This document shows positions 4,204-61,910 of a stretch of 64,000 nucleotides of DNA, one piece after another. The position numbers and the translations under genes are program-made. How positions within the stretch are numbered: position 1 is the stretch's first letter; every line of letters begins with the position of its first letter. The notes beneath the pieces are model-generated. The model ran no database searches, was not told the DNA's origin, and was given only the letters and a program-made list of their open reading frames with translations. Source of the DNA: a virus (taxonomy: Duplodnaviria; Caudoviricetes); IMG/VR virus record IMGVR_UViG_3300014204_000183, positions 4,155-68,154 of that record. One strand, 5' to 3'.

Positions 4204-4363
4204 GGTCGTCACCTTCTAGCCGAGTGTCAATGATAAGAGTTCCACCCGACATGTATGCCCCAGTCGCCTCGAATCCAATGATTTTTGATTGAGTGTACAA
4301 ATTGACAAATACCTTGCCAGCGGCAATCAATTTTTTCAACTGGTCGAGTTCGTGTGTTGACAT
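4196..4363 (-). CDS. hypothetical protein, 55 aa (leaderless; not in ORF track)
   Basis: MSTHELDQLKKLIAAGK...GDDHA*; ATG 6 nt after -10. Confidence 0.7.
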   Translation of the reverse strand: MSTHELDQLKKLIAAGKVFVNLYTQSKIIGFEATGAYMSGGTLIIDTRLEGDDHA

Positions 4364-4397
4364 ACTACTAGCCTACCACATGTGTGACTAAAGTCAA
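4364..4397 (-). promoter_or_regulatory. sigma70-type promoter, leaderless
   Basis: TTGACT-N16-TAGGCT-N6-ATG(4363). Confidence 0.75.
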
Positions 4398-4427
4398 ATA
4401 AAAAGCCGGGCGACTAGACACCAAAAA

Positions 4428-4760
4428 TTAGCAATTGTCAAGTAATTTTAATGCAGCAAAATACGTGACCCCGTTAAATTGCCGGCCCCGAATAACGTAA
4501 CTGGCCCACCTTAAACCAACACAGTCAATGCAGTCATAGCAATTAATACAGTCGAGACAGTTACGGCAATGGTCACTATTCTTACATCGGCAGCAGCCCC
4601 GGCAAGAGACGCATCTAATACAACTCGCGCAGCTATGACAATCAGCACATGCCTCGCACGTTTGGCAATCACGACAATTAAAACAGGCTTTGTTGGTGCT
4701 ATCGGATTGTGTCGCCACAATCTCTTGATCGGTCATAGCCATTATTTCGTCAAGTGTCAT
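4428..4760 (-). CDS. Cys-rich (CxxCxxC)n repeat protein
   Basis: 110 aa from MTLDEIMAM; Cys every third residue; paralogue of next gene. Confidence 0.8.
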   Translation of the reverse strand: MTLDEIMAMTDQEIVATQSDSTNKACFNCRDCQTCEACADCHSCASCIRCVSCRGCCRCKNSDHCRNCLDCINCYDCIDCVGLRWASYVIRGRQFNGVTYFAALKLLDNC

Positions 4761-4791
4761 TTTAAGCCCTAATTCAAGTGTACACCAAAAC

Positions 4792-5124
4792 TTAGCAACT
4801 GTCAAGTAATTGCACGGCCACCCTATATGCGGCATTAGTAAGCTGCCGCCCACGAATTACACAAGTGGCCCCTATTAGTCCATTGCAATCAATACAATCA
4901 TAGCATTTGATACAATCTAGGCAACTCTGACAGCGATTGCAACTTTTACATTGATAGCAACCCCGACAAGCTATACAATTAATACATTGAATACAACCAG
5001 TACAGTCGGTACAATGGCTACAATTTTGACACTCGCTGCAACCAAAACAGGCGGTATTATTGTGTGTAATCGGGGTGGCCACGATCTCTTGATCGGTCAT
5101 AGCCATTAGTTCATCTATGGTCAT
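4792..5124 (-). CDS. Cys-rich (CxxCxxC)n repeat protein
   Basis: 110 aa; colinear with 4428-4760 product. Confidence 0.8.
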   Translation of the reverse strand: MTIDELMAMTDQEIVATPITHNNTACFGCSECQNCSHCTDCTGCIQCINCIACRGCYQCKSCNRCQSCLDCIKCYDCIDCNGLIGATCVIRGRQLTNAAYRVAVQLLDSC

Positions 5125-50331: not shown

Positions 50332-50563
50332 CCTTTAGCCCCCAGCCAATGGTGTGCCAGATTTTTTCGTGCTGATAATAAAATAGAATCTTAATACCAA
50401 GACAGGCCAGGGCCAATTCGACACTTGTGCATAGATTGGATGTAAACGGATACGCGACGAGTGTAGTAAGAACTAATGATATAGTCTCCCAGCTTGTTGC
50501 TTTAACAATTAATCGTTTAGGTGTGTTAGGGTTGTGTTTCTTCGGCTTCATCAAGCACCTCAA
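50324..50563 (-). CDS. DUF2061-like membrane protein
   Basis: RLIVKATSWE..KILFYYQHEKIW..I.WG. Confidence 0.7.
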   Translation of the reverse strand: MRCLMKPKKHNPNTPKRLIVKATSWETISLVLTTLVAYPFTSNLCTSVELALACLGIKILFYYQHEKIWHTIGWGLKDG

Positions 50564-53519
50564 GATCTTGCTGGAAATCCCCCATAGACATTAACTCAAG
50601 ACGACGATTTGCCCGTAAAACTTCTAGCACTCTCTCATCTGATGGCAGATGGAGAAGATCAACAATCGTTACTGCAATATTCTCGTCAGCGCCCATTCTG
50701 TGAATCCTATCCTCACTTTGTGAACGAGATTCTGGGGAATAGTCATTGGAATAGTAGACAGCCATTCTGGATTCAACTAATGTTAGTGACATACCGCCAG
50801 ATTTCGGGTGAGCGACGAAACAGACCCGTGGATTCTTGTCAACGGCTGCCCAATAGTCTAGCGGGCCATCTGTAGTTGACTGCCCATTTGCTTTGTACAC
50901 AAGCCAGCCTCGACCATCAACTCGCACGACATCCCATCCATGCTTCAAACAGATCTTGGTCACTCGATCAATTGATCCAGTGAAGCCAGCGAACACTACC
51001 AATCGGCCAGTCTCTTCGTTCTCATCTAAAAGGTTGATTAAGGCTTCATCCTTGGGGCATGGCACTTCCTTAACCGTTCGCTCAACCTTATCAACTTCGC
51101 CAATTCCGTTGCAAGTTGCACATGGAAGTTGTGTCTCAATTAGAGTTTCAACATACTCTGGGTCCAGCATTTCAGTCATTGTAAACGCATGCTCTGAATC
51201 CTCTGGATCAATCCAATAGGTATTCGTTTTTGAACCCTTGCATACTGGGCATTGCTCCTTACCGTTTATCTTATCACGATACTGGAACCCGTCACTTAGT
51301 TCTCGGAGTCTAACGAGGCCGGTGATAGTGTTGGGGGCCGACTGTAATAATGATGCCGCTACGCGCACTGTAGCAGGAGATGGCTTGCAATATACTTGTC
51401 GGTATTGTTTATCCGGCAATTCAATGCAATCCTTTTTCTGTTTAATAATTACAAGGCCCTTGAGTCGCTCACTTAAATACGCAACCTCATTCTTAGATTG
51501 CTTGAAATCATGGATATCTGATTCAACACCTGTTAATGTTAAACCAATTAAATGCGTGTGGTTGCCTTCATCTTCAAGTTCTCCACATAGATCGCACTTC
51601 TTCTCGTTATCACGCCAATCGACAAGTTGCCAGAAGGCATTTCCAATAGCCCCTTCTTCTTTTCGATGGATACCTAGTCTAAACTTAAAGGACTCAGCAT
51701 CCCCTTCTCGCAGGAATCCGGGCCACACAATCTCACACGGAGCCCACCAATCAACTGGTGACTTTGGAGAGGGGGTACCAGACATGCCGATAACAAAGCC
51801 TTCCATGCCCCAGTCACGTCGTATGCCGTCTGCAAGAGCCTGAGCTGCTTGTGTACGTTGAGTCTTGGCTGTCTTTGCACGGCTAATTTCGTCAAAGACA
51901 ACGCCCATAGGAGCAGGGTCGCCAGACTTCCACATACTCATATGTTTAACTAGACCCTCGTAGGTCATCAGTTCAATCTCAAGATTCGAGTTGACTTCCC
52001 ACCGCTTGAACTCACGCTCAACTGCGTATAAGCCCGATTTGGGACCAACCCACCACCACTTCTTCTTACCAGACTTTTCCATCACTTCGATGGCGGAAAG
52101 TGTGTTGTGCGTTACGATGTAATCATCAGTAACATAAAGTTGATTTTTATCCGCGACTGAGATACAGATACATTCGTCCTCACCTATGGGTTCCACATTT
52201 ATTATCGCCCGAGTTGGCTGATACTTAGTCGGCACTACATAGGCATTTAGTTTTCTTGTAAGTCTAAAGGGAGTAATGGTATCAGGGAAGGAAGCATAGA
52301 TTTGATAGGCGAGCCGACCGATGCGCATCTCGCCCTTATATGAGTATGTTGGATAACATGTATGCACGTGGCAAGTTCCACCAAGCGATTGTACAAGACC
52401 GACGAAGGCGTCACACAATTGTTTTGATGTTGTTGAGTATTCGACACCAGTATCAGCCGCATACCCATCAGAGTCACAAAGACCTTGTAATAGTGCCAGT
52501 CGCTGTTCAATAGAACTATACAAGTACTCTTCAGGAATGTGCTTCTCCCAGGATCTGCGACCTTTTAACTTGGACGTTTTTATCCAGCCATTTATCGTCT
52601 TGTCTTTTACGTGGTAATCAATATTATTCGAGAACTGTAAATCCTCAGACATTGCTGCATTTAATCGCGCGACTGTTTCCATATCGGGCACAGATATTTT
52701 ATTTGTCCAATCACTCAAGGATCCGTTTCCAAGTATATATCCAACAACATATGGATCGACTGGTAATTCCTTGGTAGAATAAACTACAGGTTTTACCATC
52801 GGAATATAGTATTTAGCATTGCCATTTTTTAACCTTAGACCACTCTTGATGATCTCATTTAATTCTAGTGTCTTATATCCTTGTCCTCGGTGTTTTTGGC
52901 AGGCTGACCTAACGTTCCATAGATGGTCCCCACTACAGACAACTGTAGCCCCATCAGAAAACGTGACCCTAAACATCTCCATTTTACCCCGGGGGAATAC
53001 ACCTGTAACATAGGTGGTGCCGCCATCTGGATTGATTATGGTGTCGCCAATCTTGATCTCACCAAGTGTAGTCCAGCCATCGGGGGTGGCGACTTTTGTG
53101 CTCGGTAGTCCGCCTTTTCCAAGCCCCATCTCTGCCCCAAAGATTTGATAATGGTATGTTAAGCCTGCATCCGTCATATCTTTTTGGTGGGGCCGAAGAG
53201 GTCGTTGATACGCAAAATGTTGGATTGGCCTATCGAACCATTCATAGGCATCGATGCCCATCATGACTTGTAACTGGAATAAATTCCGTCCGCAATTTTC
53301 CACCGACCAGATTTTACGTGGGGGGTCATCAAAGCCGTGCCATCGGGCATTCTTCATCGCTTTGATTTCGTCTTTAAGCGAGAAGGGCGACTTTAGAAAT
53401 TCAATCCGAGCCTCAGTGGCTTGAATTGTAGCCGGAGTTTTTATCCGGGTGCCAGAGGCGGTGGTTGTAATTAATTTGATCCCGGTAGGTGTATTAAGAG
53501 GCAGGTTCATTAGTTCCAT
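50526..53519 (-). CDS. SNF2-like SF2 helicase containing an intein
   Basis: EMGLGK|T Walker A split by intein; FDEIS, SGTP, QSEDRIHRMG. Confidence 0.88.
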   Translation of the reverse strand: MELMNLPLNTPTGIKLITTTASGTRIKTPATIQATEARIEFLKSPFSLKDEIKAMKNARWHGFDDPPRKIWSVENCGRNLFQLQVMMGIDAYEWFDRPIQHFAYQRPLRPHQKDMTDAGLTYHYQIFGAEMGLGKGGLPSTKVATPDGWTTLGEIKIGDTIINPDGGTTYVTGVFPRGKMEMFRVTFSDGATVVCSGDHLWNVRSACQKHRGQGYKTLELNEIIKSGLRLKNGNAKYYIPMVKPVVYSTKELPVDPYVVGYILGNGSLSDWTNKISVPDMETVARLNAAMSEDLQFSNNIDYHVKDKTINGWIKTSKLKGRRSWEKHIPEEYLYSSIEQRLALLQGLCDSDGYAADTGVEYSTTSKQLCDAFVGLVQSLGGTCHVHTCYPTYSYKGEMRIGRLAYQIYASFPDTITPFRLTRKLNAYVVPTKYQPTRAIINVEPIGEDECICISVADKNQLYVTDDYIVTHNTLSAIEVMEKSGKKKWWWVGPKSGLYAVEREFKRWEVNSNLEIELMTYEGLVKHMSMWKSGDPAPMGVVFDEISRAKTAKTQRTQAAQALADGIRRDWGMEGFVIGMSGTPSPKSPVDWWAPCEIVWPGFLREGDAESFKFRLGIHRKEEGAIGNAFWQLVDWRDNEKKCDLCGELEDEGNHTHLIGLTLTGVESDIHDFKQSKNEVAYLSERLKGLVIIKQKKDCIELPDKQYRQVYCKPSPATVRVAASLLQSAPNTITGLVRLRELSDGFQYRDKINGKEQCPVCKGSKTNTYWIDPEDSEHAFTMTEMLDPEYVETLIETQLPCATCNGIGEVDKVERTVKEVPCPKDEALINLLDENEETGRLVVFAGFTGSIDRVTKICLKHGWDVVRVDGRGWLVYKANGQSTTDGPLDYWAAVDKNPRVCFVAHPKSGGMSLTLVESRMAVYYSNDYSPESRSQSEDRIHRMGADENIAVTIVDLLHLPSDERVLEVLRANRRLELMSMGDFQQDLEVLDEAEETQP
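52104..53114 (-). mobile_element. intein (337 aa) with LAGLIDADG homing endonuclease, class 3 signature
   Basis: Gly1 start, DHLW block B, ECICISV block F, VTHN|T end; VVGYILGNG and LLQGLCDSDG. Confidence 0.88.
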
Positions 53520-55503: not shown

Positions 55504-56247
55504 CTAGCGAGCCCGCTTTGATCCGGTTGTCTCTTCGACCTTTTCCACTTCCGTATTAGCCAGATTCATAAACTTTTCAATCTCCGCCTGAATCCGATCA
55601 ACAGGTGGTAGATTAGTAAACGGAGTTGAACACTGTACACAGATTGGCACGTGCCAGCCAAAGTTACGTTTGGTTACATACTTTGCTTTTAGCGTGCATG
55701 GCATGGGTCCATGTGGTTCTACCCGCACACCCTTCTTTTCTTCAAGACGTTTTGCAGCGTCTTCTGGCAATGGAAGGAAGGAAGCGATCTTATCAGATTC
55801 CATACGCATCGATTTATTGACACCACAAAACAACTCATAGAAGCGACCTGCACTGCGTTCAAAGACTAAAAACGTTAGTCCATACATACAGCCAGAATTT
55901 TGAATCGATGCCTTTTCTTGGATCTCCTTAAATGCCGACGATGTCGGATCATAGTTTGTGACAATGGCGTCACGGTCACTTAGATCAAGGGCCTTTGCTC
56001 GACAAACAAGTGGCAATAGATCGATCTCAACTCCCAGATCCTTGATACTATCTTCTCCACTTGGAACACCATAGTGGCCGGGGCGAATTAGATCCCGATC
56101 AATTGCACCGCCCTTGCTAAAAAGTTGGATCCGGTCGAAGAACTCATTACTTTTTGTTAGATCTCCAATTAGATCACTAGCCGCATTAACACCGACGGCG
56201 GGCAATTGGTCTAGTGTTACAGTGCTCAATTCAGTACTCTTACTCAT
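55504..56247 (-). CDS. hypothetical replication-module protein (possible SSB)
   Basis: Position beside ParB/origin; FGWHVP strand; function by context only. Confidence 0.5.
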   Translation of the reverse strand: MSKSTELSTVTLDQLPAVGVNAASDLIGDLTKSNEFFDRIQLFSKGGAIDRDLIRPGHYGVPSGEDSIKDLGVEIDLLPLVCRAKALDLSDRDAIVTNYDPTSSAFKEIQEKASIQNSGCMYGLTFLVFERSAGRFYELFCGVNKSMRMESDKIASFLPLPEDAAKRLEEKKGVRVEPHGPMPCTLKAKYVTKRNFGWHVPICVQCSTPFTNLPPVDRIQAEIEKFMNLANTEVEKVEETTGSKRAR

Positions 56248-56281
56248 TGTAAAACTCCTAAGTAGGTTATAGAAACTAAAA

Positions 56282-57250
56282 CTAGGTGACGATTTCAATC
56301 ATATCTGTGTCGTGTGGATCCGCTCCTAACTTTTTAGCACGACACCGATGTAGACGTGTTCTGTCCATACTTCTTTTGTCTAATTTTTCACGGTCATGTT
56401 CGGCCCTCTGTTTGGCTCGCTCTTGTGACTCGCGTATTGACTCAGGATCAATATGCAAAACCCATGCCAAAGCCAGCTTCCATATTTCAATTTTTGTTAG
56501 TTTTTCACGCGTCGTAAGTATTTCGCCATAAATTGGTCGCTCATATTCTTGTTTAACCCTGCTGAATGTGCGCAGGTGGGGAGATGGCTTATCACTGACA
56601 ATAAGGTAGTTTTTAAGGTGCCCCTCATTGATAGCTTCTTTGTACGCTTTACGATAGCCGTTGCTTAATTGGATGAATTCCCTAGCTGTCAAAGTCATTG
56701 CTTGCTTAAGTAAATCGTCTTGAAACTGCTGTGGTAGCCGGGAGAGGGCATAGGCGGACGTTATAGGTAACTCCCCGCGGTCAAGATGTTTTTTTGCAAC
56801 AGGTATGAGGCGATTTAGCCGCAAAATATCTTGAATCTTTGCTGGCCGACAATGTAATTCTATTGAAAGATTGGCCATTGTTAATTCTGGATTTTCAATG
56901 AAGAGCATTTTTAATCTAGCCGCGTATTCAGTGTTAGTAGTTGTTTTTCGGATTAAATTTGCCTGTACTTGCCAGTTTTTTACTTCACTGTCTGTTGCTT
57001 CTTTTATTATACACGGTATTTCAGAAAGTCCACAATCAAGGGCACAGCAGTATCGATGTAGGCCTTCAATTATCTCATATTTATCTGGCTGGCGTTTAGA
57101 AATTCGCACACAGATTGCGCTGAAAAACCCGTGGGCAGCGATTGAATCGCGCATCTCAATGTAATCTAAGGATGTTTTATCCACCAGACGTAATAGTACA
57201 AATGCAGGCACCAATTGATCTAACCGTAAATTTTTTAGCTGGTCCGCCAT
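56282..57250 (-). CDS. ParB/RepB/Spo0J-family protein
   Basis: SIAAHGFFSAICVR..YEIIEGLHRYCCA..ANLIR..HTH. Confidence 0.85.
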   Translation of the reverse strand: MADQLKNLRLDQLVPAFVLLRLVDKTSLDYIEMRDSIAAHGFFSAICVRISKRQPDKYEIIEGLHRYCCALDCGLSEIPCIIKEATDSEVKNWQVQANLIRKTTTNTEYAARLKMLFIENPELTMANLSIELHCRPAKIQDILRLNRLIPVAKKHLDRGELPITSAYALSRLPQQFQDDLLKQAMTLTAREFIQLSNGYRKAYKEAINEGHLKNYLIVSDKPSPHLRTFSRVKQEYERPIYGEILTTREKLTKIEIWKLALAWVLHIDPESIRESQERAKQRAEHDREKLDKRSMDRTRLHRCRAKKLGADPHDTDMIEIVT

Positions 57251-57519
57251 TTACAACCCTCACAGCAACTTATTGTCAACTCTTTGTTATTCCCTAATGG
57301 ATGGCCACAAATATTTACTAGCATTTCACAATTACAGTCTTCCCGCCTCCGTAAAATCTGTGTCCGAAATTGACAGTATCGCCACAGTGGTATTAATGTC
57401 CAAGCTCCTGCTCCTAGTTCGCTTTTTCTTCTGTACCCCTCTAGACAAGTAGGTGGGACGCTTCCACGTTGTGGAAATATAATTGTGCCATCATCTAATA
57501 TTCGGGGTGTCGTATTCAT
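57235..57519 (-). CDS. hypothetical Cys-rich protein
   Basis: 94-aa ORF. Confidence 0.6.
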   Translation of the reverse strand: MNTTPRILDDGTIIFPQRGSVPPTCLEGYRRKSELGAGAWTLIPLWRYCQFRTQILRRREDCNCEMLVNICGHPLGNNKELTISCCEGCKWRTS

Positions 57520-57521
57520 AG

Positions 57522-57545
57522 CCTCTTATATAATAGAGGGATTTT
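57522..57545 (-). repeat. 24-bp outer inverted repeat, left copy
   Basis: AAAATCCCTCTaTTATATAAGAGG; 23/24 identical to 58502-58525. Confidence 0.85.
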
Positions 57546-57640
57546 AGACTAGAAATGTTTGTCAAAAATTTTGAAGTTAGAAATTGAAGGGCATAAATAT
57601 AAATTTAGCAGAAAAGTAAATGGCTATTAGTCATAAGTAC

Positions 57641-57668
57641 TTGACTTAAAAGACATTATATCTAAAGT
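57641..57668 (+). promoter_or_regulatory. plus-strand promoter candidate pointing into palindrome
   Basis: TTGACT-N16-TAAAGT. Confidence 0.55.
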
Positions 57669-57770
57669 GTGCGTAAAAGTCTATCAGAAAACCAAAAAAA
57701 GTATGCATTTCAATTGATATAACTACTTGCTCTGCCAGTAGTTATAACTTAGGCAAAAATGACTTACGTA

Positions 57771-58316
57771 AATTGACCTCTGAAAATTTAGTAACTTTTT
57801 GAAAAGTGGCAATTTTAACTCCTTGCCCTACAACGACTTATACCAATTGAAACAGTTGTTTATGCTTTTCAAAACACGATTTAGTAAAAAATCCGCGCGC
57901 CCCCCGAATTTATATTCGCCTTTCAATTGCTGTAACCTCTTGCCTAGCACGAGGTTACATTGATACAAAAAATGACTTACGTCGATTTGAAACAGATAAA
58001 CAGTTTTGTCTACCCGAAAAGTCGCCTTGTTGGATGAAAAAAAATATTTTCGTCTATAAGGGAACTCTTTGATTTTGGAAAAGCATAAACATCTGTTTCA
58101 AATCGACGTAAGTCAAATTTTGTGTAGATATAACTACTTGCCCTACAACGACTTATATCAATTGAAAGGCATACTTTTTTTCAAAAATTTACTCCCTTTT
58201 TACTAAATCGTGTTTTGAAAAGCATAAACAACTGTTTCAATTGATATAACTACATGATATATAAGGGCTTAAAATTGCACTTTTTGAAAAAGTTACTAAA
58301 TTTTCAGAGGTCAATT
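57771..58316. repeat. 546-bp imperfect palindrome; probable replication origin
   Basis: Perfect arms 57771-57800/58287-58316, 57844-57890/58197-58243, 57973-57997/58091-58115, all centred on ~58044. Confidence 0.9.
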
Positions 58317-58501
58317 AACATAACCTCTTACATAACAAGAGATTACATCAATTGAAAGGCAAACTTATTTAAAATTAACTATCTTTTATTGAATTGTGTT
58401 TGGAAAACCGCTTCGCATTTCAATTTGTTGGTATATCGTTTGCTTTTCTTACCTCCGTGTTATTTATGCACTTCAAATTTTAGATAGAACTTTTGGCCAC
58501 A

Positions 58502-58525
58502 AAAATCCCTCTCTTATATAAGAGG
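58502..58525 (+). repeat. 24-bp outer inverted repeat, right copy
   Basis: AAAATCCCTCTcTTATATAAGAGG upstream of primase-helicase. Confidence 0.85.
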
Positions 58526-58551
58526 ACGTAATAATCTACTGGAGCTATTAA

Positions 58552-61281
58552 ATGCATGCTACGGATCAGTTAATTAGATTCTTCCAGCTTCTACCACACA
58601 ACAACCCACGAGTAGCTAGTTGGTACACACCAGATATGGAGGTTCAGGTTCTTGTCTCCCGAGATGATGGTGAGCCAGTAGCGGGCAAGAATGGTGTTTA
58701 TTGTAATAATAACTATGCGTATGACTGGTACAATTTCCGGTTGCCAAAGAATGCCAATACTGAGCCAGTAGATAATGACCACGAGCTACGTTATCCACTT
58801 GACAAACATGCGGATTCAATTGGACTCACTGGTTGGGACTGGCGGAATAAAAAATCTATTCGTTGTGGTTTTGACTATGATTCAATTACTAGTCATGCAA
58901 AGGGCGTAGGCGTCGAAGCTGAACAACTTAACGCAATTCTTGATAAACTAATGCATGTCCCCGAGGCTCTTGTTTTAAAGAGTACAGGGGGCAGCGGTTT
59001 GCATGTGTACTTTGAATTTGATGTTGACAGCCTACCAGATACACAGAACCATACAGAACACTCAGCACTAGCGCTAGCTTGTTTAAAAGAAATTTCCAGG
59101 CGTGTCGAGTTTAATTTTGAAGCGAGTATGGATGTTGGTGGCGGCAATATGTGGGTGTGGGCTCGCAGAACCACATCAGAAAATCAAGGCCTAACAACCT
59201 TAAAAGACAACTTAAATGCAGATGGGACACGCGCCTACCTAACGCCCCCTGCGAATTGGAAAGCCTACGTTGATGTTGCGGCACGTCGTAGGTCGAAGGT
59301 ACGCATAGAAGGTGTTGATGAAGCAGATCAAGATAAAATAGCGGATAAAGCCGCTGCGCAAAGAAACACACCATTAGATGATACACACAAACGAATAATT
59401 GCAGAATTACAAGCCCATACGGAATATACGACTGTCTGGGTAGCCGACCACCATCTTTTAAACACCCATACAGCTCTCTTGAAACAACTTGCCAATGAAC
59501 GGGCTAGTACTAGTGATCCCATTCTAGGGGCATTTGAAACGTTAGCAGAGGGGCGTGATAAAACAAAACCCAACGCATTTTTGTTCCCGATGCTTGATGG
59601 GGCATTTCGTGTTTGTCGTTTTGGAAAGGGTACAAACGAACACGATACCTGGAAATTGGACAAAGGTGGTTGGACGTATTGTTTTTACAACAAACCTCTT
59701 TCTTTAAGTGGAGCAGCCGCTGCCTTTGAGGGTCTAGAAGATGACTCCAAAGGTGGCGGGTATACCTTTCCTGATAGAGACGCTGCTCTCGCTGCCGTCA
59801 AGTCAATGGGTCACAACATTGAAATACCTGACGAACTAGATAATAGACAAATACGTCTACAAGCATATAAGAAAGAGAAACTGCTTGTTGAGATTGTTAA
59901 ACACTCTGATGATAAAATTGAACCTCTAGGTTGGATGCAAAAAAAAGGGAAGTTCTTTAAGATATATAATATTGATGTCAGAACGCATGGGGAAGTTAAT
60001 GCTGATTTTGAGGAGATTGATAAGTACGTTAGATGCTTGATCTCTGGAGATAACAACACCTCGGGATGGGCATACTGGCATGAAAAAGGTACGTGGGTAT
60101 TCACGACAAAAGATGATGCTCGATCCCGTTTAAAAGCTGCTGGTTATGAGGATAATGCCGAAGTCGTGCTTGGCGAAATTCTATCTAAGGCTTGGACTAT
60201 AACACACGTCCCCTTTCAAGATGAATTTCCCGGTAATAGACAGTGGAATCTGCGAGCTCCGAAATTAAAGTATCAACCAGAAGCCTATGAGCCGGGCGAC
60301 TCGCCACATCCACACTGGGATATGGTACTAGAACACACGGGAGCCGACTTGACAGCTAATTTAAAAGAACTATCTTGGGCCCAGAAAAATGGAATAACAA
60401 CTGGAAAAGACTATCTTCAAAGATGGATCGCTCTAATGCTTAGGGAGCCATTTGAACATCTACCGTATTTGTATTTATGGGGGAATCAAAATACTGGTAA
60501 GACAATTTTACACCAAGCTATTCAAACGCTTATGGTTGGTGGAACCATGCGTGCAGATTCAGCACTTACAAACACAGGGGACTTTAATGGAGAGCTGGCA
60601 GGTGCAGTTTTATGTGTAGTTGAGGAAAAGAATATTTCTCAACAAAATGCCCAGGCAGTGTACAATAAAATAAAGGATTTAGTCCTAGCAGATGTGATCC
60701 CTATTCATGCCAAGTATAAACAAGTTTGTATGCAGCCTAATACGACACACTGGATTCAATGTTCAAATTCAAGAGATCACTGCCCTGTTTTTACGGGTGA
60801 CACACGAGTAACAATGATGTATGTTGACCAGCTCGTAAATGAGATCCCTACCCGCACGCTGATTAAAAAATTAGAAGATGAGGCACCATATTTTATGTAC
60901 ACCCTAATGAATCTTCCACTGCCAGATGTTGAGCACAGACTCCGTCTTCCAATTGTTGACACATCAAGTAAAGAACAACTTATAGATGCCAACAAAAACG
61001 CATTAGAGAATTTTATTGATGAGTATTGCTTCTTTACTCCTGGATTTGCGACATCGTTTGACGAGTTTATGGCACATTTTCGCACCAGTATTGCTGAAAA
61101 TGAAACCATATATTGGGGCCGTCAAGCTGTATTAAACGCCCTTCCACACGAGTATCCAGTTGGTAAACTTGTAGGCGGTAAGAAACATATTGGAAACCTG
61201 TCGCTGGAGAGCAGAGAAATTGAAACCAATGGATGTTATATAACTCGTCAAGGTTATCTAGTTTTAGAAACGGAAGTTTAG
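58552..61281 (+). CDS. primase-helicase (AEP-like N-terminus, SF3/D5-like helicase)
   Basis: DYD, KSTGGSGLHVYF; WGNQNTGKT, VVEE, CSN. Confidence 0.85.
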   Translation: MHATDQLIRFFQLLPHNNPRVASWYTPDMEVQVLVSRDDGEPVAGKNGVYCNNNYAYDWYNFRLPKNANTEPVDNDHELRYPLDKHADSIGLTGWDWRNKKSIRCGFDYDSITSHAKGVGVEAEQLNAILDKLMHVPEALVLKSTGGSGLHVYFEFDVDSLPDTQNHTEHSALALACLKEISRRVEFNFEASMDVGGGNMWVWARRTTSENQGLTTLKDNLNADGTRAYLTPPANWKAYVDVAARRRSKVRIEGVDEADQDKIADKAAAQRNTPLDDTHKRIIAELQAHTEYTTVWVADHHLLNTHTALLKQLANERASTSDPILGAFETLAEGRDKTKPNAFLFPMLDGAFRVCRFGKGTNEHDTWKLDKGGWTYCFYNKPLSLSGAAAAFEGLEDDSKGGGYTFPDRDAALAAVKSMGHNIEIPDELDNRQIRLQAYKKEKLLVEIVKHSDDKIEPLGWMQKKGKFFKIYNIDVRTHGEVNADFEEIDKYVRCLISGDNNTSGWAYWHEKGTWVFTTKDDARSRLKAAGYEDNAEVVLGEILSKAWTITHVPFQDEFPGNRQWNLRAPKLKYQPEAYEPGDSPHPHWDMVLEHTGADLTANLKELSWAQKNGITTGKDYLQRWIALMLREPFEHLPYLYLWGNQNTGKTILHQAIQTLMVGGTMRADSALTNTGDFNGELAGAVLCVVEEKNISQQNAQAVYNKIKDLVLADVIPIHAKYKQVCMQPNTTHWIQCSNSRDHCPVFTGDTRVTMMYVDQLVNEIPTRTLIKKLEDEAPYFMYTLMNLPLPDVEHRLRLPIVDTSSKEQLIDANKNALENFIDEYCFFTPGFATSFDEFMAHFRTSIAENETIYWGRQAVLNALPHEYPVGKLVGGKKHIGNLSLESREIETNGCYITRQGYLVLETEV

Positions 61282-61469
61282 TATGGATTGTATTATTACA
61301 GTTTTTAAGTGGGTAGGGGATAATGCTATACCAGTGGCTGAGATCCGATGGGCTGGAAAACTTCCCACAAATGGCACAAAATTTGCACTTAAACACGGTG
61401 GAGATTTTATAGAGATTCAAGACTGGGACGAGTATATTGAACTGCAAGATTACAGCTAAGGGAGGGATA

Positions 61470-61910
61470 ATGGCTAAAAAATCAAAGTGTCAAGTAAAAG
61501 ATAGTGGTACTAGACGAAAGTTTGTCACCGGAGCTGTTCGTGACTGTGCTGTTGGCAAAGGGCGTATGGATCTGTTGCCATTTCGCACCTTAATTCGGTT
61601 AGCACAACATTTTGAAGACGGGGCTACTAAATACGGAGACGACAACTGGCGTGCTGGGATCGACCTACGTTGTTATGTTGATAGCGCAGTCCGACATCTA
61701 AGTAAATTTATGATTGGTATGCGAGATGAGCCGCATCTTATTGCGGCCATTTGGAATCTTGTCGCCTTGTATGAAACAGAGGCGATGATTACAGAGGGAT
61801 TACTACCGGAATCCCTAAATAATTTACCTAATAATCCAATCGAGATCACGAAGAATCCACATAATATACAACCTACTAACAAGCGAGAGACTGATGGACA
61901 TAAATCCTAA
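61470..61910 (+). CDS. dATP/dGTP diphosphohydrolase domain protein (DUF5664-like)
   Basis: TGAVRD..GKGRMDLLP..GATKYG..NWRAG..SAVRHL..EPHL.AAIWN. Confidence 0.85.
   Translation: MAKKSKCQVKDSGTRRKFVTGAVRDCAVGKGRMDLLPFRTLIRLAQHFEDGATKYGDDNWRAGIDLRCYVDSAVRHLSKFMIGMRDEPHLIAAIWNLVALYETEAMITEGLLPESLNNLPNNPIEITKNPHNIQPTNKRETDGHKS

Follow-up and report, generated by a model that had tools for sequence, protein, structure and literature searches.

The window analyzed here is a stretch of 64,000 nucleotides (nt) that comprises bases 4155-68154 of a 68-kb IMG/VR virus contig (record IMGVR_UViG_3300014204_000183; CheckV completeness ~51%). Its minus strand carries nearly all genes from 831 to 57519, and these are followed by a short plus-strand block encoding a primase-helicase, a MazZ-like hydrolase and an exonuclease. 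Between the two blocks lies an intergenic gap that forms a large imperfect palindrome, with operons of DNA-handling genes on both sides. This gap, which we favor with moderate confidence as a replication origin, and the genes that border it are:

57520-58551, no strand: the whole intergenic gap, 1032 bp, 31% GC, an imperfect palindrome centered on 58043.5
58552-61281, plus strand: primase-helicase of 909 amino acids (aa), with a core of the superfamily 3 (SF3)/D5 type (DUF5906) at residues 642-750 and a C-terminal winged helix at ~815-887 (nt 60994-61212)
57235-57519, minus strand: the leftward operon starts with this gene for a 94-aa protein, in which six cysteines are invariant
56282-57250, minus strand: orphan ParB/Noc-like protein with an N-terminal domain and a helix-turn-helix (HTH), its GERRxRA box degenerate (GLHRYCC)
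55504-56247, minus strand: conserved 247-aa protein with weak likeness to OB-fold, gp32 and phiC31 gp3 folds

The gap was described in an earlier note on this DNA as AT-rich and free of open reading frames (ORFs), and so it is: its GC content of 31% compares with ~42-48% in the surroundings, and its sole ORF is a mechanical 54-aa TTG frame. Ungapped complementarity about 58043.5 extends to 234 of 508 positions, against 169 ± 3.9 in 100 shuffles (maximum 179), and in a gapped alignment of the two arms 346 of 464 columns match (75%). The same point is the strongest symmetry center of the 64-kb window (127/250 versus a mean of 63 ± 7). Three perfect inverted arms of 30, 47 and 25 bp, previously proposed to share one center near 58044, are all located, with centers at 58043.5, 58043.5 and 58044.0, respectively. 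The innermost pair encloses an asymmetric center that is a candidate DNA-unwinding spot:

57771-57800 and 58287-58316: 30-bp perfect inverted arms, center 58043.5
57844-57890 and 58197-58243: 47-bp perfect inverted arms, center 58043.5
57973-57997 and 58091-58115: 25-bp perfect inverted arms, center 58044.0
57998-58090, no strand: asymmetric center, ~93 nt between the innermost perfect arms, with an A8/T-rich tract at 58037-58050 and the box TCTATAAGGGAAC at 58053-58065

A large cruciform had also been suggested. The single strand does fold very well in prediction (-174.5 kcal/mol, z -21.6), yet this does not demonstrate extrusion, because any palindrome would fold so.

Superimposed on the palindrome are six 25-nt units, which stand exactly where the earlier note had placed them and conform to the 25-bp dyad consensus TAAC-NN-CTTG-N5-CAAG-NN-GTTA to varying degrees:

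57720-57744, no strand: U1, dyad unit, TAACTACTTGCTCTGCCAGTAGTTA
57816-57840, no strand: U2, imperfect dyad
57933-57957, no strand: U3, dyad unit
58131-58155, no strand: U4, imperfect dyad
58247-58271, no strand: U5, degenerate
58321-58345, no strand: U6, dyad unit

Two pairs of units are indeed mirror-placed, the units at 57816 and 58247 being exact partners and those at 57933 and 58131 partners to within 1 nt; the mirror positions of the outermost units, 57720 and 58321, are off by 22 nt because of an insertion or deletion. The element reported to flank each unit is likewise present, as TTTCAATTG occurs six times in the gap, once per unit and three bases off, whereas one copy is found outside the gap in 64 kb and 1.2 copies are expected for the whole window. 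The module is thus TTTCAATTG-N3-25-nt dyad, and this array of modules is unique within the window. Read by their TTTCAATTG flank, the modules point right, left, right on one side and left, right, left on the other, and the gap therefore resolves into three basic elements, each made of two converging modules:

57705-57852, no strand: E1, basic element, a right-pointing module and a left-pointing module
57918-58170, no strand: E2, central complete element, TTTCAATTG, dyad, A-tract and GACTTACGTCGATTTGAAAC, then the AT-rich center, then the mirror image
58235-58357, no strand: E3, basic element, mirror image of E1

The perfectly conserved 20-mer GACTTACGTCGATTTGAAAC occurs once on each arm of E2 and nowhere outside these arms. 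A shorter repeat runs through the whole gap: TTTCAA/TTGAAA cores number 14 in 1032 bp, compared with 1.5 ± 1.2 in composition-matched shuffles and a density of 1.05 per kb in the window outside the gap, and they alternate in orientation with copies on both sides of the center. In about half of the 25-nt units at least 9 of 11 positions pair, and the others retain just a TAAS-NN-CTTR half; the mismatches concentrate at variable positions, with the blocks TAA, CTTG, CAAG and TTA preserved. This partial pairing led us to reject the dyads as obligatory hairpins, since base-pairing is not generally selected, and in their sequence they look like sites for a dimeric protein, which fits better. A sigma-70 promoter composed of a dyad and TTTCAATTG was also rejected, the spacing of 22-23 nt being too long.

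At the two edges of the gap, TATA-rich boxes just before both start codons probably mark two divergent promoters, and TATAAT-like boxes occupy the equivalent place in relatives:

57522-57577, minus strand: outer left arm, a TATA-rich -10-like box, ...TATTATATAAGAGGCT then ATG on the minus strand, 73% complementary to 58470-58525 (arm pair I5); putative, nearly leaderless promoter of the 94-aa/ParB operon
58470-58525, plus strand: outer right arm, putative promoter for the operon of the primase-helicase; TTGGCC-N16-TATATA, then a leader of 27 nt that contains GGAG

A further promoter candidate, placed by the earlier note at 57641 and firing into the gap, fares less well: it matches the consensus at 9 of 12 positions, but the region holds no excess of such matches (5 versus 6.3 ± 2.4 in shuffles) and the candidate has no mirror partner.

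The locus is preserved well beyond the window. A search with the primase-helicase retrieved 13 viral loci and one with ParB retrieved 7, and more contigs were added by exact look-up. More than 15 independent phage contigs share the gene order 247-aa protein, ParB, Cys-rich 94-aa protein, gap, primase-helicase; the full order persists to ~54% primase identity and the pairing of ParB with the primase gene alone to 40%. In one contig (L011:4511-4909), a 132-aa ORF is inserted between the palindrome and the primase-helicase gene. In most relatives with a primase at least 54% identical, the gap is a palindrome about its own center, and its length is 430-713 bp in most relatives. The relatives' module consists of TTTCAATT(G), 2-4 nt, a 25-nt TAA...TTA unit and then ACTTACGTCGA-TTGAAA, present once per arm in most relatives and twice in L025. 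E2 is the counterpart of the single element found in most relatives, and the window thus stacks three basic elements in one gap where most have one. In L009, L012 and L036, the iteron is arranged in mirrored tandem arrays of three 13-bp repeats that immediately precede the promoter boxes. The TTTCAA core is among the two commonest gap 7-mers in nine of nine close relatives (dominant form ATTTCAA), and the dominant repeat differs by clade, being TTATCACCGG in the L040 clade and TTTGCAA in L018/G001, where both G001 copies of the element carry it.

Comparison of the arms reveals a striking pattern of change. Within a genome, arm-to-arm local alignment scores range from 37 to 256 and reach at least 64 in 10 of 12 genomes, whereas the same arm compared between genomes scores only 7-59, with flanking proteins 55-84% identical. 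Since the arms within a genome are far more alike than the same arm across genomes, the arms evolve in concert; judged from these alignments, they are homogenized inside a genome, and from one genome to another the sequence drifts rapidly. The centers differ in another way. The central box TCTATAAGGGAAC is kept in L007, L012 and L017, facing the primase side as in the window, and in L018/G001 it lies on the ParB side and on the opposite strand, so that the palindrome center has apparently been inverted in one lineage relative to the other.

The complete 147-kb relative G001 provides a second view of the element. It contains another copy of the ~235-bp core, 82% identical, at 33.40-33.66 kb (L028:13400-13680), 83 kb from the copy between ParB and the primase gene. 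The genes directly ahead of the second copy, one HNH-like and one endonuclease VII-like, have plus-strand orientation, and no divergent genes surround it, which argues that the core is a separable cis element and not merely a pair of back-to-back promoters. The two G001 copies differ chiefly inside the 25-nt units and the ~10 nt beside them, and the differences are mirrored within each copy. After the second copy come some 580 bp of unusual non-coding sequence with many TATGTA repeats. Apparent second palindromes in G002 (4250-4800) and G003 (1-400) were discarded as collagen-like GGTCC repeats of tail-fiber genes; such GGTCCn repeats score as strong palindromes and are a trap for automated symmetry searches.

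The conserved neighbor of the array, the primase-helicase, has a D5/P4-type SF3 core, with matches to PF19263 DUF5906 (E 7e-14) and to PHROG 1829 and 1156, 'DNA primase' (E 5e-15). The public gene call is an 881-aa protein starting at 58636, 28 codons later than 58552, and the 909-aa frame is more likely because relatives align from its residue 1. The tail of the protein, its last ~70 residues, is the most variable part, with 44% identity among close relatives versus ~80% elsewhere, and it has no sequence match in the PDB. In an AlphaFold2 (AF2) model, the last 125 residues (predicted local distance difference test, pLDDT, 80) adopt a winged helix of H-b-H-H-b-b topology. Compared with 48,161 chains, this model has as its top rows RFX5 (Z 8.4) and the RFX1 DNA-binding domain (Z 7.8, root mean square deviation (RMSD) 2.2 Å over 69), and the phage P4 origin-binding domain (1KA8) ranks third of the 48,161 (Z 6.2, RMSD 2.2 Å over 68, 13% identity); the remaining rows, which include the primase-helicase tails of African swine fever virus (ASFV) and vaccinia, have Z of at most 5.0. 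The P4 gp-alpha origin-binding domain, RFX1 and the ASFV primase-helicase tail have been placed in one fold class (PMC10516667). As only 13% of the tail is identical, kinship with the P4 domain is unproven. The variable winged-helix tail co-varies with the clade-specific repeats.

Opposed repeats, an AT-rich center and a primase-SF3 helicase with a co-varying winged helix match the design of the origins of Staphylococcus aureus pathogenicity islands (SaPI) and of P4, and on these grounds we read the gap as an origin. In SaPI, the origin has opposed iterons on either side of an AT-rich region, which are read by the C-terminal winged helix of Rep (PMC9371898). The pri-rep-ori systems of SaPI and phage-inducible chromosomal islands (PICI; Rep1 and PriRep5 of S. 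aureus) resemble the present locus in their self-loading SF3-type helicase, which in PriRep5 is joined to a primase and which recognizes short iterons through a C-terminal winged helix, and in the place of the origin, which directly adjoins the initiator gene, its opposed iterons flanking an AT-rich region (PMC9371898). Unlike those systems, the array here lies between divergent operons, spans 0.5-1 kb, is a near-complete palindrome and carries additional 25-bp dyads; the genome is that of a lytic-type phage of ~130-150 kb, and sequence similarity to SaPI Rep is not detectable. P4 gp-alpha likewise unites primase, helicase and a C-terminal winged-helix origin-binding domain in a single polypeptide. 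P4 has two separated iteron clusters, ori and crr, which parallel the two G001 copies, and oriL/oriR of SPP1 are comparable to the duplicated G001 element. However, P4 iterons are direct and inverted octamers and P4 is an 11.6-kb satellite, in contrast to the kilobase palindrome described here.

We therefore judge it somewhat more probable than not that the gap is a cis-acting, iteron-type, bidirectional replication origin of the P4-alpha/SaPI kind, which overlaps a divergent pair of promoters and to which ParB may bind as an accessory protein. A bidirectional origin with initiator sites had been put forward in the earlier note; it is the best-supported reading, given the conserved place beside the primase-helicase, the P4-type winged-helix tail and the opposed repeats flanking the AT-rich center, and it is still one that we infer. 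On such a model, the winged-helix tails would bind the iterons of both arms, and two helicase rings would assemble on either side of the AT-rich center and melt it. The primase part may then start bidirectional synthesis, in the way put forward for SaPI Rep/PriRep and P4 gp-alpha. The 25-bp dyads would be sites of a dimeric accessory protein, for which the orphan ParB and the Cys-rich 94-aa protein are candidates, and this dimer could couple origin firing to expression of both flanking operons. What keeps the arms symmetric may be recombination or templated repair acting between them, selection for a pair of equivalent loading sites, or the two together.

Several observations weigh against an origin at this place. 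The P4 match of the tail, at Z 6.2, is moderate and under the trust level advised for the tool, and Foldseek alone finds nothing significant with the tail model. DnaA boxes were searched for, and none was found. The array is placed upstream of the initiator gene, in contrast to origins of the SaPI type, which are downstream of rep. In L016 and L038 (primase 54-58% identical), the gaps are symmetric but only ~130 bp long and lack modules, and in L042 (primase 40% identical) there is no palindrome; the large array is therefore not needed by every family member. GC skew, which had been recommended as a check, tracks the orientation of the genes both in the window and in the complete relative, where the locus is no global extreme. 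This check, run on the complete relative, is uninformative as a test for an origin, since transcription direction governs the skew. Sense-strand GC3 (third codon positions) differs between the two gene blocks (0.027 versus -0.039, p 0.007) as would fit an origin, yet it varies equally inside one block and is thus confounded.

The neighboring ParB offers another explanation, in which the gap would be a loading or silencing platform with no origin function: ParB would bind the TTTCAA half-sites or the dyads and control the divergent operons or organize the phage DNA, as do KorB, VirB, Noc and Vibrio cholerae ParB2. By sequence, the protein is a true Noc/Spo0J-type ParB, as it matches Pfam ParB_N (E 1.5e-9) and its profile matches Noc and Spo0J over both N-domain and HTH (E 1e-21). 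Its gene, which codes for a DNA-binding protein of the ParB/Noc fold, adjoins the array in every relative, and its recognition helix differs among clades with different repeats. The core of the iterons, xTTTCAA, is similar to the half-sites with TTTC in parS TGTTTCAC and in the Noc-binding site (NBS) TATTTCCC (PMC7383237). There is also precedent for such a role in V. cholerae, in which ParB2 binds within oriII and silences the promoters of that origin (PMC3688505). Set against this, ParA (PF13614, the single ParA family model searched) is absent from G000, the window's genome, and from G001-G005, six contigs that include the complete 147-kb genome, with controls positive in 14 of 14 genomes; a classical partition reading is thus not supported. 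No recurrent 16-mer palindrome of parS type (at most one mismatch) is found across 16 gaps, where the repeats are mostly lone half-sites and the likeness to parS is confined to them. The cytidine triphosphate (CTP)-binding box GERRxRA is degenerate in 14 of 14 relatives, with only GxxR kept, and is spelled GLHRYCC in the window and in the relatives nearest to it. Also, L042 retains ParB beside the primase gene without any array. Of the earlier suggestion that ParB binds the sites, what stands is that it may do so, in a setting that departs from ParB-parS and Noc-NBS by its missing ParA, its missing 16-bp palindrome and its degenerate CTP box. Since ParB binding is compatible with an origin, the platform is a rival only in its 'no origin' form, which we regard as rather unlikely. 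Less probable still is an ordinary divergent promoter/operator region with no replication role, whose halves would stem from an inverted duplication kept alike by gene conversion and whose repeats would be operators of a regulator such as the Cys-rich 94-aa protein. The outermost arms do carry TATAAT-like boxes 5-30 nt ahead of the start codons, the minimal gaps of L016 and L038 amount to two symmetric promoter halves back to back, and the 13-bp arrays of L009, L012 and L036 lie directly upstream of promoter boxes. But the G001 core palindrome that stands away from any divergent promoter pair does not fit, nor do ~900 bp and 14 iterons, which are far beyond the normal needs of an operator; moreover, the motifs are missing from the many other promoters of the window, and promoter-like matches within the region are at chance level.

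The remaining two explanations carry little weight. A site for telomere resolution, site-specific recombination or inversion, served by a dedicated cut-and-rejoin enzyme, was named as the alternative in the earlier note and is not borne out. In its favor could be counted the size of the palindrome, the central box lying on opposite sides in the window clade and in L018/G001 as if flipped, and the endonuclease VII-like and HNH-like genes that adjoin the second G001 copy. The center, however, is ~93 nt of non-palindromic DNA, the innermost perfect arms ending at 57997 and resuming at 58091, and a flipped center is expected from plain homologous recombination between the arms. Protelomerase (PF16684) is absent from G000 (~51% complete) and from five relatives, one of them complete, and tyrosine recombinase (PF00589) is absent from G000-G004, including the complete 147-kb genome. 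The flanks are unrelated unique genes, so the gap is no concatemer junction. The telRL/TelN system of N15 resembles this locus in that the phage has a large inverted repeat together with genes for a primase-helicase and a protein of the ParB family, but here no protelomerase gene is found, the center is not a perfect dyad, and the element lies inside unique sequence in all contigs. Such a site is accordingly very improbable. The chance that the palindrome is an assembly fold-back artifact is smaller again and close to nil: several metagenome contigs (L010, L035 and Logan contigs) do end inside or beside it, but more than 10 independent assemblies from different samples show this architecture between unique flanking genes, and the arms are imperfect and contain insertions and deletions. 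Conserved, concertedly evolving arms in independent relatives dispose of this idea.

The reading of the gap as an origin can be extended, more speculatively, to a self-homogenizing palindromic origin that is read by two systems. In this extension the winged-helix tail would read the iterons, and the CTP-box-less ParB or the Cys-rich protein would read the dyads, whose inner bases would be copy-specific 'addresses' that decide which of the origins fires or which of the operons is active; the arms would be kept alike by cruciform- or hairpin-templated repair, and the center would flip between isomers. The inner dyad bases do vary from copy to copy, both between the G001 copies and among the six units of the window. 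We put forward the whole scheme as a doubtful one.

Viral origins of similar design are known elsewhere. HSV (herpes simplex virus) oriL is situated between divergently transcribed replication genes. The oriS and oriL of HSV are palindromic, with an AT-rich center and inverted initiator sites on the arms; they take a hairpin form in activation, and one genome contains several of them (PMC12543377). The phage gap shares the palindromic form, the AT-rich center, the inverted sites on the arms and the multiple copies. By contrast, the HSV initiator is the superfamily 2 (SF2) helicase UL9, the palindromes measure 45-144 bp and the virus is eukaryotic, so that the likeness is an analogy of design and not membership.

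As for the other genes of the locus, the 94-aa protein with the invariant cysteines is probably zinc-binding and has no family or structure match in database searches. The 247-aa protein is listed as a 264-aa ORF (55504-56298, minus strand) that probably starts at its 18th codon. It is the best-conserved gene of its operon (67% mean column identity) and has no Pfam, PDB sequence or Foldseek match; VIA-align gives weak OB-, gp32- and gp3-like matches with Z of at most 5.7, and its ESM Atlas neighbors are Pam3_Gp34/DUF5895. Farther out, a 997-aa helicase (50526-53519, minus strand; PHROG 62, E 3e-46) has LAGLIDADG/homing-endonuclease matches at residues ~328-387 and probably contains an intein. 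Downstream of the primase-helicase, the N-domain of a MazZ-like dATP/dGTP diphosphohydrolase (61437-61910, plus strand; PF18909, E 3e-19) adjoins the primase in many relatives. A search of the window's contig and of four relatives, including a complete one, for a PurZ-type adenylosuccinate synthetase was prompted by this MazZ-like neighbor and found none. A DNA search of 50,697 records of cultured phages gave no match, and protein matches to cultured phages are confined to the helicase core, at 24-30% identity. The nearest named homologs (~41% identity) come from Planctomycetota metagenome bins. Rfam gives nothing on the gap but chance matches to microRNA hairpins, far under threshold.

An iteron origin beside a primase-helicase is of a familiar kind, and here it would take an unusually large palindromic form. 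The locus offers a candidate origin, a candidate initiator domain and candidate binding words for an uncultured family of 130-150 kb phages that has no cultured relative. With practical consequences, the palindrome breaks metagenome assemblies, and its cloning would be hard. Across many genomes it is a clear example of the two halves of a kilobase palindrome in concerted evolution, and the orphan ParB without a CTP box that sits at the putative origin may provide a useful setting for the role of phage ParB-like proteins.

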